From Octopus sinensis (Eukaryota): DNA of 64,000 nt. The notes beneath the pieces were generated by a model. The model was given only the letters and a program-made list of their open reading frames with translations. It had not been told where the DNA came from and made no database searches. Position 1 is the first letter of the stretch; each line of letters opens with the position of its first letter. The translations under genes and the position numbers were made by a program. The stretch is from contig NC_043012.1 in assembly GCF_006345805.1 (NCBI RefSeq), positions 9,176,001 through 9,240,000 on the forward strand, given 5' to 3'. Below are positions 3,238 to 60,127 of this stretch, one piece after another.

Positions 3238-4338
3238 TGTGTTTATTTAAGAAGATATTATTTTACATTTGAAAAAATACAAAACAAACTATGAAGAGTA
3301 CTACGAATGAATAACATAAGTGTGCGTTCGTTCGATCGTTCGTTCGCTGATTTGTTTTTTGTTTGCTGTTTTAGTGGATAGTTGTGTACCCACAGCTAAC
3401 CACTAGCCTCTAAACTATGAAATAAGGAGCGGAAACTATTTTTGCTTAATCAGCGATCCAAGTGGCAGGTGGTAGTTATGAGCCATACAAGTAAAATACG
3501 CAAGCATTTTTACCCACAATTCCGTTTAATTTTACTTCGATACAAAAGGAGAGGAGGGGGCTGAGTGGCAATTAACATTCTAGTAACGCAGTGGCAGACC
3601 GAGATTTGCCACCAGCGATTTGCATGTGAAGCTATTGTTTGTGACGACTGCAATATATAAGTATTGTCTTCGACACCACATAAAGACAAAACAGCCTTTT
3701 GTGTTCAGGTGATTAAATACGCTTCAGAAAAAATATAGCTTTCAAATATAATGTTTCAACAGAGGCTATGTAAAGTACATCAGCTCCTCCATAGTAGTAA
3801 CCAATTATTATATTCTTTGTTAGCTTAATCACAATACTCACGAGAATTTCAGTATTCACAAATCTTTATTACAACAGCAAACATTTTCCCCATCTAAATA
3901 TCATTTGTGTTGTTTTTCTTCTTTATTTTCTTGTACTTGTTGGTGATTATGCTGTGTTTATTGTTACGACTTTCATATTTGCTTTTCCTGTTAGTTTCCT
4001 TGTAGCTCAGCGGTAAATAATACTGTTGCTCATTTTATAGTTTCATATAGTGTCTGTAGATGTGATTTTACTCTTCTCACCTGGTTGTATCGCACTAATC
4101 AGTACATCTAGCACATAGACTAACACACAAGTACAGAAACGAAAACGCACACACATATGCACATTCTCCATCTTTCATTGTTTTCTCTCTTATTATCTTT
4201 TCCTTTGTTTCCCTCTATCTTTCTCTCTCTCCATATATATGTACACACGCACACACACATACACACTCACATGTATATTGTTATTCAAAAAATATTTAGC
4301 TTGTTATACAGGTACATAAACATAACGAACACATATAA

Positions 4339-4390
<52 letters not shown>

Positions 4391-4698
4391 TTATATGTGT
4401 TCGTTATGTTATGTACCTGTATAACAAGCTAAATATTTATATATATATATATAACAAGCTAAATATATAATATATATATATATATTATATATATATATAT
4501 ATATACATAATACAAATAGGAAAATGAAGAAACAAATTTAGTTTGTTCATCAACTTTCGGATATTATAATGCTGGATTATTTATTCATTTAACAAGATGA
4601 GAACATCAATAGCATAGAAATATATCCTATAATTCAATACATATAAGATATAAGATAAGAATACAAATTATAAAAGTCAAAATATAAATTGATAAAAT

Positions 4699-4997: not shown

Positions 4998-5800
4998 AAG
5001 TGAGATCATCCAGAACAAAGAACAACAGATGAAACGTTGGGTGGAGCACTACTACGAACTGTATGCAGGAAAAAACAAAGTTATCAAAGATGCCCTGAAC
5101 GCCATTGTGTGCTGGCCAGTCCTTGAAGAACTTGACAACGAACCATCATTTGAAGAGCTCACTGAAACGCTCTGTGGTGAATGCAATCCTGTGTCTCGGC
5201 TGGAAGAGGGGCGAAGTACCACAAGACACGAGGGATGCAGACGTCGTCACGCAGTATAAGAACAAAGGTGACAAGAGCGACTGCTGCAACTATCGCGGTA
5301 TCTCTCTCTTAAGTATCATTGACAAATTGTTTGCTAGAGTTGTACTGAAGAGGCTTCAAGTTCTCGCTGAGAGAATCTATCCGGGATCCCACTGTGGCTT
5401 CCGTGCTAACAGATCCACCATCGACATAGTCTTCTTTCTCAGGCAGCTACAGGAGAAATGCAGAGAACAACAACAACAGCCCCTGTACTTCGCATTCATA
5501 GACCTGACAAAGGCCTTTGACTTAGCAGGGAGAGCCTCCTTGCCATCCTCCACAGCAGTGAGTGCCCACCCCGACTCCTCAGTATCCTAAAGTCTTTTCA
5601 CGAAGACATGAAAGGTACTATTTTTTTCGATGGTTCAACATCAGATGCCTTCAACATCTAAAGTAGGTTGAAGCAGGGCTGGGTTCTCGCTCCAACCCTC
5701 TTTGGTATTTTCTTTGCTTTCCTTTTGAAACACGCCTTCGGTTCATCCACAGAAGGCATCTATCTTCGCACCAGGTCGGATGGGAAGCTGTCTAACTTAA
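4998..5800 (+). mobile_element. RTE (BovB-like) LINE reverse-transcriptase fragment, frameshifted
   Basis: YKNKGDKSDCCNYRGISLLS...CGFRANRSTID..LRQLQEKCREQ..PLYFAFIDLTKAFD, then LKQGWVLAPTLFGIFF in another frame. Confidence 0.9.
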
Positions 5801-9576: not shown

Positions 9577-9609
9577 ATTTAAAAAAGGAGATGTGGAACA
9601 CGAGTTGTG

Positions 9610-9937
9610 ATATATAAAAAAGGGAAATGAAGAAAATGCTGACAAAATAATTTAAGTAAGGGAGAGTGTATTTAATTAGGTGAAAGTTCTTTTTACCGGT
9701 TGCGCATTTCTTATGCTTATCAAAAGATATTTTTAGAGAGATAGAGTTCCTTTCTGATAGATTTTTTCTCTTATCAGATAAGAGAAAAAATCTATCAGAA
9801 GGAACTCTATCTCTCTTAAAAAAATCTTTTGATAAGCATAACAAATGCGCAACCGGTAAAAAGAACTTTCACCTAATTAAATACACTCTCCCTTACTTAA
9901 ATTATTTTGTCAGCATTTTCTTCATTTCCTTTATATA
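9610..9937. repeat. ~330-bp near-perfect palindrome (fold-back), centre 9776
   Basis: Arms gaaatgaagaaaatgctgac...ctcttatc / gataagag...gtcagcattttcttcatttc; (TA)n on both sides. Confidence 0.95.
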
Positions 9938-13577: not shown

Positions 13578-14020
13578 CCTCACCTTCACCCCAAATACTG
13601 TCCTAAATAAAGAGCACGTGGTCCTGATTCTAAATATGGATGCACAAAAAGCAACGGATGCTCCTTCTTACATCCTAAACTGTGACCCAAATTTTGTGTC
13701 ACTAAGGATATATCTGAACCTAGAATGCAACTTACAACATCTGAAGGTACAAAACGAACGAAAAATAACAATAAACGACAGCAGATATTTTTATTAAATG
13801 GAATGATCAATCAAGTAGTTTTATTAGAATCCACCTAATTATTTCGGTAATTATCTTTTTATTACGTATAAAGGGAAATAAAGACGCTGCAAAAATACAT
13901 TTTAAAATTTATTGTTACTATTCGAGCTAAGAAGGACCATCCGTTGCTTTTTGTGCATCCATATTTAGAATCAGGACCACGTGCTCTTTATTTAGGACAG
14001 TATTTGGGGTGAAGGTGAGG
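13578..14020. repeat. 93-bp inverted repeats (13578-13670 / 13928-14020) around a 257-bp spacer
   Basis: Arms are reverse complements with one visible mismatch; the right arm abuts a family A SINE head. Confidence 0.9.
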
Positions 14021-14438
14021 CGCAGGAGTGGCTGTGTGGTAAGTAGCTTGCTAACCAACCACATGGTTCAGGGTTCAGTCCCACTGCGTGGCATCTTGGG
14101 CAAGTGTCTTCTGCTATAGCCCCGGGCCGACCAATGCCTTGTGAGTGGATTTGGTAGACGGAAACTGAAAGAAGCCTGTCGTATATATGTATATATATAT
14201 ATATGTATGTGTATGTGTATGTTTGTGTGTCTGTGTTTGTCCCCCTAGCATTGCTTGACAACCGATGCTGGTGTGTTTATGTCCCCGTTACTTAGCGGTT
14301 CGGCAAAAGAGACCGATAGAATAAGTACTGGGCTTACAAAGAATAAGTCCTGGCGTCGATTTGCTCGACTAAAGGCGGTGCTCCAGCATGGCCGCAGTCA
14401 AAATGACTGAAACAAGTAAAAGAGTAAAAGAGTAAAGA
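14019..14438 (+). mobile_element. SINE family A, full length
   Basis: ggcgcaggagtggctgtgtgg...gaaacaagtaaaagagtaaaagag. Confidence 0.92.
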
Positions 14439-14550
14439 GAGTATTACCGTTATGATGTCTTTTCGTGTCCTAATTAATAGCGGCAGAATTAGTGTTAATA
14501 GGATTAATATACGTAATGTTTTTATAGTCTGCTTCAAGTAAGACAGAGTT

Positions 14551-14840
14551 ATGCCGAACTGCTAAGTTACGGGGACGTAAACACCAGCATCGGTTGTCAA
14601 GCGATGTGGGGAGGACAGACACAGACACACAAACATACACACACATTCATATATATATATATATATATGCATATATACGACGGGCTTCTTTCAGTTTCCG
14701 TCTACCAAATCCACTCACAAGGCTTTGGTCGGCCCAAGGCTATAGTAGAAGACAATTTCCCAAGGTGCCACGCAGTGGGACTGAACCCGGAACCATGATG
14801 TTCGTAAGCAAGCTACTTACCACACAGCCACTCCTGCGCC
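14551..14840 (-). mobile_element. SINE family A, 3'-truncated
   Basis: Reverse complement of the family A head and middle. Confidence 0.88.
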
Positions 14841-15237
14841 TGTTGTTTTAAATTTGCCACAGAAAGTGATATACGTTTGTGGTGGCTAATGGTGGTGGGA
14901 CGCCTGAGTGCCAAGGGTCGGCAGCCCGAAAAAGTTTGGGAACCACCGTTTTAAGTTTTACCAGGTCGTGATTGCCAGTCAGTGGGTATTGCACAGACGG
15001 GTACAAATGTATGTAATAATCAATATGAAAGTTTGTGGAAGAGTTTGATAAACTCAGTTGGTGTGTGAAATGAAGAATCTAACGTAGCGGGGCTTTTGAG
15101 TTTTAAAGATAGAAAAATAGAGAAATATAATGTTGTAGGTAAGTATGTAAGAAGAAATCGAAATGAAGGAGCGATATGAGGCCGAAAGGGAATAAGAATG
15201 GGAAAATCAAAAGAGAATAGAAAGAGAGATTCCCATA

Positions 15238-15662
15238 GGCGCAAGAGTGGCTGTGTGGTAAGTAGCTTGCTAACCAACCACATGGTTCTGGGTTCAATCC
15301 CACTGCGTGGCATCTTGGGCAAGTGTCTTCTGCTATAGCCCCGGGCCGACCAATGCCTTGTGAGTGGATTTGGTAGACGGAAACTGAAAGAAGCCGTCGT
15401 ATAGATATATATATATATTATATATATATATTATGTGTGTGTGTGTGTTTGTGTGTCTGTGTTTGTCCCCCTAGCATTGCTTGACACCGATGCTGGTGTG
15501 GTTTACGTCCCCGTAACTTAGCGGTTCGGCAAAAAGGGACGATAGAATAAGTACTGGACTTACAAAGAATAAGTCCCGGGGTCGATTTGCTCGACTAAAG
15601 GCGGTGCTCCAGCATGGCCGCAGTCAAATGGCTGAAACAAGTAAAAGAGTAAAAGAGTAAAG
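15238..15662 (+). mobile_element. SINE family A, full length
   Basis: Same sequence as 14019-14438. Confidence 0.92.
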
Positions 15663-16498
15663 AGAGAGAGAGAGAGAGAGAGAGTAAGGTGGTGTGAGAG
15701 GATGATAGGGTTAGAGAAAAGCAAGAAGGAAGAAGGTAGTAACCTTCTCGTTTCGTTCTCCTCGCTGACCCTCTCACACCGCATCTCTCTTTCTCTCTCT
15801 CTCGGCTTCTCCTTTCTCTCCGATAGAACTCCTCCGTTTATTTCATTTCATTGACTTCAATAAAACAAGACGTTTTTTTTTTCTTTTCATACTCAAAGGT
15901 GACTGTCTGAAGCCTTCGATTATTCATTATTCATAATTCCCCGTAAATAAACCCGACTTCAGAGTAATTGCCGCTGAAGCTGAACATCAGCAGATTGCAT
16001 TCAGTGTATGTATGTGTGCCCTGCTTGAGTGTACGCGTCTGTTTGTGCGCGCGTAGATAAAACAGCGAAATGTTCCTATATGTATATGTATCTGGTGACG
16101 GTGGGTTTATTAAGTGTGTATAATACATTACATGTACCTGGCTATGTAGCAACAGCCGGCTTTAATGCCTTTATTATTATGAAAGAACTCTGTGATAACA
16201 GCAGGGTGGACATAAGTGTATGGACAATGTAATTTATAATATAAAATATATAAAATATAATATATAAAATATAATATATAAAATATAATATATAAAATAA
16301 AATATAATAGAATACAACTTGTAATTTAGTTACAAGCCAGGTTGCCACAGGAATAATGTCTCAATATCTTAACCACGTTAGATTCCCATATTGCTATCAT
16401 CACGTTTAATGGTGTTTAAAGCTGCGTACATTTTGGTTTTAGGTCCCATAAAGTATCAATAAAGCATCATAAAACTGAAAATAACAACATATATATAC

Positions 16499-16572
<74 letters not shown>

Positions 16573-16575
16573 TCT

Positions 16576-16693
16576 TATATAGAAGGGGCTTCTACAGGAC
16601 TAGAACTGTTTCATTCAGAGAAATCTTCAGGAAGCTTCCTGAAGATTTCTCTTGAATGAAACAGTTCTAGTCCTGTAGAAGCTCCTTCTATAT
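16576..16693. ncRNA. Head-to-head palindromic pair of type I hammerhead ribozymes
   Basis: Plus: AGCTTC-CTGAAGA-TTTCTCTTGAAT-GAAA-CAG(TTCTAGTC)CTG-TA-GAAGCT then AATAAA; mirror copy on the minus strand; centre GAAGCTTC at 16631-16638. Confidence 0.78.
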
Positions 16694-16763
16694 AATAAAT
16701 TAATTTTACTCTACTATGTATTGAGTACCTTATTTACTGTGGTTAACCCCGAATCAACCCGGG

Positions 16764-16846
<83 letters not shown>

Positions 16847-17198: not shown

Positions 17199-18033
17199 CA
17201 GAGATGCGATGGGTAAATTGCCGCCATTTTATATTTTAAATTTCGCGAATGCGCACTGTTTGTTTTTGATTTTGTCGACTACACAGTATAGTAGGGTCAG
17301 TTGGGCACCGTTTGTATGAAAAACAAAACAATGACGCAATTCTATCTGCCAGAAATTTGCAAATGATATGATGCACTGCTTTGCATTCGTGCCGGAATCT
17401 CCAATATGAACATTTCAGAGTGTTTGGGTGTCAATCTGAGGACATGTACCGAGAGTGATATAAAATCAAAACCTCCAGTCAACATCATGGTGATGGCCGC
17501 GTTATGCTTTTCATTCATCTTCCCACACGGATTGAACAGGGAAGCCTACATAAAGTTCCTGGAGGAGGTAGTGCTGCTCTGGGTCAAGAGGGTGGCTGCT
17601 GGAAGACCTTATGACTGGCAACAGGATTATGCACCATACCATACAATGAGAACCCAGTCATGGGTATGAGACAATTTCTACCACCACATCGCCCCTAAAA
17701 TCTGGTCGCCTAACTCCCCAGACTTCAACCCCCTTAATTATAATGTGTAGGGTGCAGGTGAGCGAGAAACCAACAAAACTTCTTGTAACACCAAAGATGA
17801 ACTGAAGGCAAGGATTATGGCAGCATTCACCAACTTAAATAAAGTGACCGCGTCAGAAGAGTTGCAGGAGATTCCGACGTCGTCTGGAGGCCGTGGTTAA
17901 AGCCAATGGCGATTTTACTTTGGTATTTCAGGATATTTTTATGTAATTTTGGTAAATATATCTTTTAAAATGAGGTGTCAGTGTTATTTTCATTTTTGCA
18001 TAATTTAGACGACAGTTTATTCACCGCACCCAA
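17199..18033 (+). mobile_element. Degenerate maT/DD37D-like Tc1/mariner transposon
   Basis: WQQDYAPYHT...WSPNSPDFNPL(N)Y...RRRLEAVVKANGDF with about 36-37 residue spacing; imperfect TIRs gatgcgatgggtaaattgccg / cgacagtttattcaccgcacc; TA flanks. Confidence 0.8.
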
Positions 18034-18038
18034 TATAC

Positions 18039-18731
18039 ATTCTTTTATTCTTTTACTTGTTTCAGTTATTTGACTGCGGCCATGCTGGAGCACTGGCTTT
18101 AGTCGAGCAAATCGACCTCAGGACTTATTCTTTGTAAGCCTAGTACTTATTCTATCTGTTCTTTTGCCGAACCGCTAGGTTACTGGGACGTAAACTCACC
18201 AGCATAGGTTGTTAAGCGATGGTGGTGGGACAAACACACACAAACAAATACACACGCATACACACACAGACAGACAGACACACACATATATATATATATA
18301 TACACATGAATATATGAGTGGGTGTGTGGTAAGAAACTTGCTTCCTAACCACACGTTACCGGATTGAATCCTACTGCTTGACACCTTGGGTTAATGTCTT
18401 CTAATATAGCCTGGGGCCAACCAAAGCCTTGTGAGTGGGTTTGGAAGAGGGAAACTAAAAGAAGCCCGTCGTGTATATATATATGTGTGTGTGTCTGTGT
18501 GTATGTGTGTGTGTGTGTGTGCTTGCATGTCTGAGTTTCTCCCCCCCACCATCGCTTTGACAACCGATGTTGGTGTGTTTACGTTCCCGTAACTTGGCGG
18601 TTTGGCAAAAAATACCGACAGAAGAAGCACTAGGCCAACAAAGAATAAGTCCTGTGGTCGATTTATTTGACTAAACGCAGTGCTGCAGCATGGCCGCACT
18701 CAAATGACAGAAACAAGTAAACGAGTAAAAA
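18039..18731. mobile_element. Two family A SINEs (minus 3' half 18039-18300; plus diverged full 18312-18731)
   Basis: Sequence match to family A. Confidence 0.85.
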
Positions 18732-35131: not shown

Positions 35132-35135
35132 TATA

Positions 35136-35905
35136 AAATTGAATTTAAAATGAGGGTAAGAAATTAGATATTAATTATTAACATCGATTTCACACCAGTG
35201 TCTAGCATATATAAAACTGAAGGTTCAGTAAAATTGTATTATTACACATATAAGAGGAAACCACTATGTGGACACCCTTACGCTAGAAATAGATCCGCTA
35301 TGGTCTTACCATTAGAAATGTTCTCAAGTAAAATTTAGCTAACAACCAAAACGTAATCGAGCAAGACAAGAGAAAAAGCAATAAAAAATATGGATTATTC
35401 GCATACATGTTTCACTATCGACATATTACGTAATTTTGCTTACATAATTGTCCGTAGATCATCGGTGCGACCGTCCAGATGAATATAATTTGTAGGACTG
35501 CATACTAGGTCGTCCGCACAAAGTCAGACTTGTAAAACAGTCCTACCATTACACTCGTGCTTTCTATTTCAAATGTCCTCGTTTTGGCGCGCTAAATTAC
35601 CGAAAAACTGATGCTGCAGATAATACTTTACTGCAGTAGCCTTTGCCGGTTAGAGAACGTATTAATTCAAATTTGAATTTGAAATGAGGGTAAGAAATTA
35701 GATATTGATTTAATTAACATCGATTTTACACCAGTGGTCTAGCATATAAAAAAACTTGGTTGTTTTGCAAAATTTTTCTTGAGAACATTTCTTAGTGGTA
35801 AGGCCATAGCGGATCTATTTCTAGCGTAAGGGTGTCCACATAGTAGTTTCCCTCTAATGTGTATATAATAGAATTTTACTGAACCTTCAGTTTTTTTTTG
35901 TATGC
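35136..35905 (-). mobile_element. PLE pseudo-LTR-like element with direct and inverted partial duplications
   Basis: Segment A is repeated directly (35136-35217, 35669-35755); segment B (35205-35348) is inverted at 35756-35905; HHR in between; left end in (TA)n. Confidence 0.75.
35391..35478 (-). ncRNA. Type I hammerhead ribozyme (CCGAUGA core variant)
   Basis: TCGCA-CCGATGA-TCTACGGACA-ATTATGTAA(GCAAAA)TTACGTAAT-ATGTCGATAGT-GAAA-CATG-TA-TGCGA; distal TGGA/TCCA pairing. Confidence 0.75.
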
Positions 35906-55604: not shown

Positions 55605-55983
55605 ATATGAATATGAGGGAGAATCCACTATGTGGACACCCATACGCTAAAAAGAGATCCGCATGAGTCTCAACCACTAAGAATTGTTCTCAAGAAAAAT
55701 TTAGCACATCATTAACAATTGTATGGGGTTAATCTGTATTTTGTTATTTTTCATTAGTCCTGCTCGCTTACGTTCATGGTGTGCTAAATTTTTCTCGAGA
55801 ACAATTCTTAGTGGTTGAGACTCATGCGGATCTCTTTTTAGCGTAAGGGCGTCCACAGAGTGGATTCTCTCTCATATTTATGTATTAATAATATTTACTG
55901 AATCTCAGTTTTTATGCGCTAAGCCACTGGTGTTAAATTGATGTTATTAAATTAATATCCAATTTTTTCACCCTCATTTTGAC
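55605..55983 (+). mobile_element. Relative of the 35.1-kb element with ~105-bp inverted repeats (55611-55716 / 55772-55881)
   Basis: Shares ccactatgtggacaccc.tacgcta...gatccgc and caccctcatttt; ends in (TA)n. Confidence 0.8.
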
Positions 55984-56430
55984 TATATATATATATATAT
56001 ATATATATACATTCACACATATACACACAATAGGCTAAAAAAATCCTTAACACCAGCACATATTTGGAATGAAATGCAGGGAAGCATAAATATCACAAAG
56101 ATGCATTATTTAATTACTTTTAACAACCGTTTCATTAGGAGTACGGATAACTAATTCCATAATTACGTAATCAAGCTAATTAATTATTATAAGTCAATTA
56201 AATTTAAAGTAATGCTTATGCCAAATCATATGGAATAGTACCGCTGGTAGTTGAAATAGGAGAAAAGAATCAAAATGTATCAATATGTGGTCGAGAAAAT
56301 AATTTAATCCTTATCTCTGCCTCGTTCCAGTTATGGTCCTACTTCGCGGTACCTTCTATTCTAGCCTGGGTTTCATCAATGGCTCGTGAGTAAAATTTCT
56401 AAAAGCAAACTTTACCTAATCTCGTCGACG

Positions 56431-58579: not shown

Positions 58580-59200
58580 AATTTTCAAAATCTTTTATTT
58601 AATACGCAAAGTGAAGAATTGAAATGTAATCGATAGGTAGGTCTACATACTTTAGTGTTTAGTTGACTTTCCCTTTTGCAGTTTTTAATTCAGAAACTCT
58701 TTTTGGCATTGAACTGATGAGCTTTGTGATGTCTCTTGTGGAATTTCTGCTCACTTTTCATGCAACAATCGAAACAATTCATCTTTAGATTTAGGTTTCT
58801 GTCGAGTTTTTCCTTTAGCTCTATCTAGTATGCTCCAAAGATCTTCAGTTGGGTTCATGTCAGGAAATTGGTTCGGCCAAGGAAGCTTTTTGATCCCATT
58901 TTCAGTCAGCAATTGTTGATTCCTTTTCGCTGTGTGGCATGGAGCCCCATCTTCCATGAATAAAAACTCATTTTTCGTTATGTTATCGTGTGAATACATT
59001 GGAAGTAGTCTTTGATTAAGTATTTCGATGTATGTTTCAGAGTTTATGGTTCCAACACATTCGATCAGCTCAGAACGACCATTGCTGGGGACAGCTCCCC
59101 ATACCATTACAGAGATACCGTCATGTTTCACAGTTGGTTGGAGGCGAGAATTCAGATGTAGGATTTCTGTGTTTGCACATGCGTATGACGTCCCCATAAT
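58580..59200 (-). mobile_element. Tc1 (DD34E) transposase C-terminal fragment
   Basis: VKHDGISVMVWG...FMEDGAPCHTAK...WPNQFPDMNPTEDLW; D-x34-E counted. Confidence 0.9.
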
Positions 59201-59886
59201 AACGTCGAACACCAGATAAATCGAAGTGATAGGTAGTACTATGATGAAATACGAGGCGGTAGATGGAGTAAAAATTAACTAGAAGAATTAACAGGGAGAA
59301 GTGGATTTGCAGCTAGACACCTTGAGTGGCAACACCATACCGTCCAATAGCGACGTTGGATGCTGGACAGTATGAGTGGATTAAATTGTTCGGGATTCGG
59401 TCCAAACCTCCAGGTGTACAAGAACTGGAGAAAACAGGGTGACTAGTTTTATCTAGTAACGAAATGAGACGAAACTGTCCCTGAAGGTTCGAGCGAGGGA
59501 GACGAATGCGAACATCACATCCGTCATCTACTATCAGCGCCTGACAGTCGTATCTCGTCCCGCCTATGTCGTTTTACGTTCTGTGTTCAAATCTTACGCG
59601 CATGAAAGTTGCCTTTTACCTTCCGAGAGTTGATAAAAATAAAATATCAGTTTAATAATGGGATAAATGGAATCGAATAGCTCCCTTAGCTCAAAATTGC
59701 TAACATTGTGTCTAAATTTAAAAAAAATATTATGGATTTAGCTGATGAGTAACTGAACTGGTATAATGGTAAAACGACAGAGAAAATTGAGGTAACCGTT
59801 TGACATTGTAGAGGTACATATAAAATGGCGAGAAGTAGCTGGTAACACACACACACACACACACACAACACACACACACACACACA

Positions 59887-60042: not shown

Positions 60043-60127
60043 AATTTTTGAAGATGTTTATTGATTTGACCGGTTTCACTTTCTTAAAAAAGTGAAATCG
60101 GTCAAGTCAATAAACATCTTTAAAATT
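60043..60127. repeat. 85-bp palindrome of a hammerhead 3' half plus AATAAA
   Basis: Each arm reads outward AAAGT-GAAA-(C/T)CGG-TC-AA(A/G)TC-AATAAA-CATCTT; lies between (CA)n and (TA)n. Confidence 0.8.

Follow-up and report, generated by a model that had tools for sequence, protein, structure and literature searches.

An (AT)n tract within a 64,000-nucleotide stretch of the Octopus sinensis genome (NC_043012.1, positions 9,176,001 to 9,240,000; hereafter the window) contains two copies of one repeat in head-to-head orientation, with a tail on the right copy only. The palindrome that they form is real, as are the two type I hammerhead motifs that meet at its centre on opposite strands, and their occurrence is beyond chance. 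The locus is very probably a stub-sized insertion, into the (AT)n tract, of a hammerhead-bearing pLTR from a high-copy and probably Penelope-like retroelement (PLE). The paired motifs are most likely not a purpose-built double ribozyme; they appear to be a by-product of where the join fell.

Structure of the palindrome

A preliminary description of the window had claimed a palindrome at 16576..16770. It is present, at the limits given in Table 1, and its arms differ at three places: the right arm has an extra T within loop II (16652/3), T16683 stands against the mirror base G16587, and there is a single change close to the outer end. The outer end of the left arm is the mirror image of the short 3′ end of the repeat family (about 16698-16700), where this arm stops, and the right arm runs on to the family's long end through a tail (16701-16769) that terminates in a small A/C-rich stem-loop in the predicted fold. 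No second copy of the family was found elsewhere in the 64-kb window.

Table 1. Coordinates of the palindrome, its flanks and the hammerhead motifs (positions in the window)
Feature	Position	Strand	Details and basis
Near-perfect palindrome	16572-16698		Centre between 16634 and 16635; 95% identity over 128 columns
Perfect spacerless core of the palindrome, 36 bp	16617-16652		Centre AG/CT between 16634 and 16635
Left arm, inverted tail-less repeat copy	16572..16634	minus	Arm alignment and contig ends
Right arm, to the family's short 3′ end (16700/16704)	16635..16700	plus	Contig ends and arm alignment
One-sided tail of 65-70 nt, up to the long 3′ end of the family	16701..16769	plus	Contig ends
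(AT)n microsatellite, left side of target	16486..16571		
(AT)n microsatellite, right side of target	16770..16846		
Type I hammerhead motif	16633..16683	plus	Descriptor; predicted cut between 16677 and 16678
Type I hammerhead motif	16588..16635	minus	Core from 16630; predicted cut between 16593 and 16592

Other repeats surround the locus. A decayed mariner-like transposase was read by eye to the right of the palindrome (about 17200-18030). A SINE-like repeat of roughly 420 bp with internal (AT)n/(GT)n occurs in many copies (14018-14841, 15237-15660, 18034-18726 and others), and we take these copies to resemble octopus SINEs. A tandem repeat family of roughly 184 bp lies at 39.9-40.5, 42.1-42.6 and 53.7-54.2 kb.

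Hammerhead motifs

A strict hammerhead descriptor matched the window twice, at +16639 and -16630, and matched none of 100 block-wise dinucleotide shuffles. The two matches are mirror copies and hence count as one event. Of the features of a type I hammerhead, a CUGANGA core, GAAA, a UH triplet, stems I to III and an open stem I were found. In the plus motif, stem I comprises six base pairs (AGCTTC at 16633-16638 with GAAGCT at 16678-16683), the core reads CTGAAGA (16639-16645) and GAAA (16658-16661), and stem II begins with U16646·U16657 (U10.1·U11.1), followed by three base pairs and a four-nucleotide loop. Stem III (ACAG/CTGT) has four base pairs and an eight-nucleotide loop containing CTAG, and the cleavage triplet predicted from the sequence is GUA, at A16677. 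The minus motif has the same core and a stem III of four base pairs, with only five base pairs in stem I and only three nucleotides in loop II.

The standard 10.1-11.1 pair, usually G-C, is absent and U·U stands in its place. This non-canonical pair at the base of stem II had been pointed out in the preliminary description, together with its recurrence at 35.4 kb, and both observations are correct: at 35.4 kb, U35458 follows the core and stands opposite a U before GAAA. The motif there belongs to a different family: U4 is changed to C in its core (CCGATGA), its stem II is long, and its stem III has two base pairs. Natural hammerheads with this U·U variant have already been reported, according to the available text of PMC3088659 and PMC7229834.

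No Rfam hammerhead model matched either motif, even at E 10, and no Rfam family was matched at gathering scores. Those matches that Rfam returned by E-value were generic miRNA-like hairpins far below threshold and were rejected. Identification of the motifs therefore rests on the descriptor. The palindrome centre had been proposed to provide a common stem I 5′ strand for both motifs; a shared part does exist, and it extends only over AGCT (16633-16636), where the two stem I 5′ strands overlap.

Predicted folding of the palindrome and its halves

RNA spanning the full palindrome was predicted to fold into a 58-bp hairpin, of -99 kcal/mol for the plus strand and -95 kcal/mol for the minus strand (z about -20). 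When the three ribozyme stems were imposed on this RNA, the predicted cost was 72 kcal/mol (plus) or 70 kcal/mol (minus). When the RNA was made to start at 16625 instead of 16629, the predicted probability of the three-stem fold fell from 1e-2 to 2e-6, and for RNAs starting 8-10 nt to the left of 16633 the ribozyme fold was predicted at 1e-6 or less. Whichever strand is transcribed, the antisense arm is made ahead of the motif; the ribozyme would therefore be expected never to form in read-through RNA, and in the folding model neither strand of the full palindrome should cleave.

For the plus half alone, all three stems formed with a predicted probability of 2e-2, a marginal value from a model that omits core contacts. 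Pair probabilities for stems I and III in this half were predicted at 0.8-0.97 and about 0.5. The minus half alone was worse than the plus half, at 5e-4 for all three stems. Stem III and its loop were predicted to pair with a second copy at -12.8 kcal/mol, against -1.4 kcal/mol as a hairpin, and intermolecular pairing of this kind would be consistent with dimer-type activity.

These predictions bear on two earlier suggestions. A complete ribozyme with a 4-bp stem III was said to be encoded by either strand; this is so in the sequence, but the full-length RNA would be blocked from adopting the fold (ddG about 70 kcal/mol). A read-through transcript was also suggested to form a hairpin of ~55 bp that competes with the ribozyme. 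A long hairpin is indeed predicted, with a length of 58 bp, and instead of merely competing it would abolish the ribozyme fold by the same ddG. Judged from the modelled folds, the locus is probably a dead copy, and could at most be a source of a dsRNA hairpin on read-through. The available part of PMC3681739 already describes siRNA from Penelope inverted repeats, with ADAR/Dicer-type processing of PLE inverted repeats.

The repeat family in public sequencing runs

The repeat stretch was partly present in 20 of 24 listed public runs, drawn from 10 studies with six organism labels. Contigs from four of the 20 positive runs (X1, X2, X6 and X9) were aligned to the stretch, and 8310, 1654, 1003 and 99 contigs in the four runs fitted it. 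The family is a very high-copy animal repeat of about 16633-16769. Summed depth, which is not a copy number although it makes the abundance of the repeat plain, was maximal over the core, with 3.2 million in X1 compared with 0.12 million at 16621-16627. Depth over the left arm is ambiguous, 829 of the 8310 X1 contigs fitting two places. Pattern scans for relatives gave 0 matches in metagenome contigs and 0 matches in viral contigs.

The ends of the family were located from loose contig ends, taken from 24 of 91 loose-end rows. (AT)n was found behind 16700 in at least 20, 16 and 14 contigs (X1, X2 and X6), behind 16704 in contigs of X1 and X9, and a few letters behind 16765 in at least 49, 25, 16 and 3 contigs of the four runs. 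The contig ends at 16700/16704 and about 16769 therefore indicate a family with two 3′ ends, 65-70 nt apart. Before 16633, different upstream sequence was found in at least 28, 20, 5 and 1 contigs of the four runs. In X1 and X9 this upstream sequence ends in GTTAACT. The stem I 5′ strand native to the family is therefore AGCTTC, and AGCT is all that the two motifs have in common.

The letter change A16713G was seen in all four runs. RNA editing was rejected as its cause, since the DNA-like runs share the change, and it is a common letter of the family. The left arm shows a single A-to-G difference (16587), indistinguishable from an ordinary transition. None of the 20 positive runs is recorded as an RNA run; X9, guessed to be one, had no depth at 16572-16585, which has no bearing either way on expression.

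Joints between inverted copies

Fixation of the inversion point across copies had been raised as a question in the preliminary description, and the contigs answer it in the negative. At least eight other left-to-right joints were found, leading from 16614-16618 to 16654-16664 or 16728. The eight joints listed all skip both half-cores, with depths of 2 to 1135, and one among them is common to X1 and X6. One joint is complex, containing 16 intervening letters that resemble the family's own 3′ end. Of the 32 listed pieces, five cross the centre; all five contain gap letters (5-12 each), and none crosses it unchanged. A single go-back (head-to-tail) joint, 16694 to 16633 in X1, represents a partial tandem. 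Because contigs built from short words break where a palindrome is perfect, these counts under-represent perfect junctions. Some of the joints may also have arisen by later central deletion within palindromes and not as independent integration joints.

In X2, the loose-end consensus before 16633 (20 contigs, agreement 0.59) was compared by eye with a fold-back whose centre would lie 4 nt upstream of that in the window, and 13 of the final 15 letters of the consensus agreed. The probability of such a match by chance is about 3e-5 to 3e-4, allowing for 30 offsets. The earlier idea of a fold-back or template switch at the 5′ end of the ribozyme agrees with an inversion near the hammerhead 5′ edge, but a simple self fold-back alone would leave unexplained the stop of the left arm at the family's second 3′ end.

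The same layout of (AT)n, arm, arm plus tail and (AT)n recurs at 9.6-9.9 kb and, without a ribozyme, at 55.6-56.0 kb. The 55.6-kb pair starts downstream of the ribozyme, which indicates that inversion needs no ribozyme. It is a head-to-head pair of the 35.4-kb hammerhead family (55610-55985), with a non-palindromic spacer, (AT)n at both ends and a one-sided extension of about 100 nt on its right side. That second hammerhead family lies on the minus strand at 35135-35890, with its core at 35465 and CATG in stem III, and extends as far as the (AT)n at 35135. Beside the hammerhead lie part of a tail (35669-35747) and a piece that is inverted and has no tail (35756-35890).

Further inverted repeats were observed in the window. 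At 9580-9935, a 309-bp palindrome of 96% identity lies between (AT)n tracts, with an extension of about 45 nt on the left only; no hammerhead was found in it, and it probably represents one more family, the third, of this kind. Two smaller inverted repeats were seen at 60051-60120 (arms of about 35 bp, no spacer) and at 4293-4435 (47-bp arms flanking an (AT)n centre).

Probable origin of the locus

The locus shows the signature of PLE integration. It consists of an inverted 5′-truncated pLTR with a palindromic head-to-head junction, it has a one-ended tail and belongs to a family with two 3′ ends, and its target is AT-rich microsatellite DNA, since (AT)n flanks the locus on either side and also follows the family ends in the four runs. 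The accessible text of PMC8557442 describes an inverted 5′-truncated PLE copy, a tail of 30-40 bp often at one end and a bias towards (TA)n; that of PMC3846280 describes palindromes (18 and 38 bp) where pLTRs have their 5′ ends, head-to-head arrangement as the common form, and an overlap of 15 bp between inverted and direct pLTR. Membership of the family among the PLEs is probable. Against it stand the failure to link the family to a reverse transcriptase or GIY-YIG frame among those scanned, the tail, which measures 65-70 nt where 30-40 bp have been published, and the lack of an Rfam hammerhead match. No target-site duplication was visible, and the (AT)n flanks would hide one.

The window holds 440 frames of at least 55 residues, of which 299 are non-repetitive; the 145 longest of these were scanned with Pfam. 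Among the 145 scanned frames there was no reverse transcriptase or GIY-YIG frame that could be linked to the family, and no host exon above the Pfam cut-off. Pfam gave only an RVT_1 fragment (5099-5587), which we take to be RTE/LINE-like, and a DDE_3 transposase fragment (58754-59278).

A PLE insertion could have produced this structure as follows. The element's endonuclease would nick both strands of the AT tract, and two cDNAs would be started, one from each of two RNA start sites. Synthesis of both would halt close to the hammerhead's 5′ edge, and the self-complementary AGCT in stem I would serve to join the 3′ ends of the two cDNAs. In RNA that crosses the centre, the upstream arm would pair with the whole motif and lock off both hammerheads. 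As described in the available portion of PMC11167929, a PLE protein for which a dimer is predicted cuts AT-rich DNA, extends the two strands and begins reverse transcription at two sites, the interval between them corresponding to the tail. Alternatively, one cDNA may prime itself, the intermediate being resolved by the endonuclease at the AT-rich short end; self-priming with endonuclease resolution was proposed in PMC3846280 and PMC8557442, as far as their available text goes. Given a PLE origin, we judge that two cDNAs joined at AGCT have a slightly better than even chance of being the route taken, and that self-priming is a credible but less probable one.

Several of these features would also be expected of a non-LTR retrozyme monomer, that is, a SINE-like non-autonomous element with a type I hammerhead and a circular RNA intermediate, inverted at insertion. 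The family is short, very abundant and non-coding, it is of type I with U·U as in axolotl HHR_Amex2 (PMC7229834, available part), and one head-to-tail joint (16694 to 16633) was seen. The window, however, contains no tandem array of hammerhead units, the ends lie at 16633, 16700/16704 and 16769 and not at the cut site 16677, and the two alternative 3′ ends and the inversion fit PLE integration; we therefore regard a retrozyme as unlikely. In its accessible part, a preprint (10.64898/2026.07.22.740005) argues that animal retrozymes are non-autonomous PLE derivatives and ties them to PLE pLTRs, and on that argument a retrozyme origin comes close to the reading preferred here.

We consider it very improbable that the locus is a selected bidirectional or conditional ribozyme, one that cleaves if transcribed from the centre and on read-through is silenced or feeds ADAR/Dicer. 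The joints vary and mostly delete the core, the minus motif is short of one stem I pair and one loop II base and reaches only 5e-4 against 2e-2 for the plus motif, and a start 8-10 nt to the left of 16633 already brings the ribozyme fold to 1e-6 or less. Both cores are intact despite arm divergence of about 5%, but three differences in about 64 columns are too few to show selection; the predicted pairing of stems I and III in the plus half (0.8-0.97 and about 0.5), and the promoters of two directions suggested for pLTRs in the available text of PMC3846280, would accord with such a ribozyme. A fold-back artefact of assembly or library preparation has an equally slight chance of being correct. 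The exact junction is spanned by no listed contig, as might be expected of an artefact, and short-word contigs also break at perfect palindromes. The left arm, however, ends at a natural family end, the flanks beyond the AT repeats and the tail are unmirrored, and the arms differ at three places. In addition, contigs cover the outer end of the left arm (depth 351, 19 and 53 at 16572-16578 in X1, X2 and X6), and similar joints occur in public runs.

Within the preferred PLE reading, a further and rather doubtful suggestion is that the template RNA begins at the 5′ edge of the hammerhead, so that inversions would cluster there, and that short self-complementary words in stem I and immediately before it (AGCT, CTAG) join the two cDNAs that a dimeric reverse transcriptase makes from the two start sites. 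The X2 loose-end consensus described above is a lead in this direction. If this were true, stem I would double as a cDNA-joining signal, and with thousands of genomic copies both twin priming and the role of the PLE hammerhead could be tested in vivo. With the native upstream letters, the centre (16633-16635) follows TAG (TAG/C), a weak signal resembling a 3′ splice site. In D. virilis Penelope, according to the available part of PMC4209133, an intron end maps to helix I.

Comparison with known systems

The closest resemblance is to the Adineta vaga elements Pen2, Pen2a and Pen3a, as the accessible text of PMC3846280 and PMC8557442 describes them. Like the octopus locus, they have a head-to-head arrangement with a junction palindrome (18 and 38 bp, compared with 36 bp here), a one-sided tail, an AT-rich/microsatellite target and a hammerhead in the repeat. 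The octopus locus has neither an ORF nor a third pLTR, its tail measures 65-70 nt and not 30-40, and its arms each keep a whole hammerhead, the two overlapping in stem I.

The available part of PMC4209133 reports pLTR hammerheads, as well as pairs that occupy opposite strands at distances of 100-700 bp. The Schistosoma min-HHRs described there resemble the octopus pair in having two close type I motifs on opposite strands, read as truncated PLEs, an additional or unpaired base where stem II begins, and a palindromic word in loop III. In the window the distance between the motifs is zero, and they have a short stem II (3 bp) and, at 4 bp, a longer stem III than the min-HHRs.

Axolotl HHR_Amex2 (PMC7229834) and the U10.1·U11.1 variants of PMC3088659, as far as these sources were available, share type I with U·U, and a weak monomer would be expected. 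HHR_Amex2 lies in a 350-bp tandem repeat, whereas the octopus motif lies outside any such repeat. In the Drosophila Penelope siRNA loci (available part of PMC3681739), as here, an inverted repeat would yield dsRNA if read through; the octopus hairpin measures only 58 bp and is a sequence-based prediction.

Published accounts already include the U·U mismatch at stem II, pairs of hammerheads on opposite strands, and siRNA derived from inverted repeats of PLEs; the locus departs from the published cases in its tail of 65-70 nt and in the zero distance between its motifs. No published hammerhead pair overlapping in stem I was found in a search that had most subscription papers and supplements outside its scope.

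Implications

The locus provides a further, probable example of the PLE mode of integration. It also calls for caution, as a ribozyme on both strands can arise as a by-product of inversion. An abundant family with two 3′ ends, a long tail and many inversion points could be used to test two primed cDNAs against self-priming, and also to test the idea that the hammerhead's 5′ edge is where the template begins.
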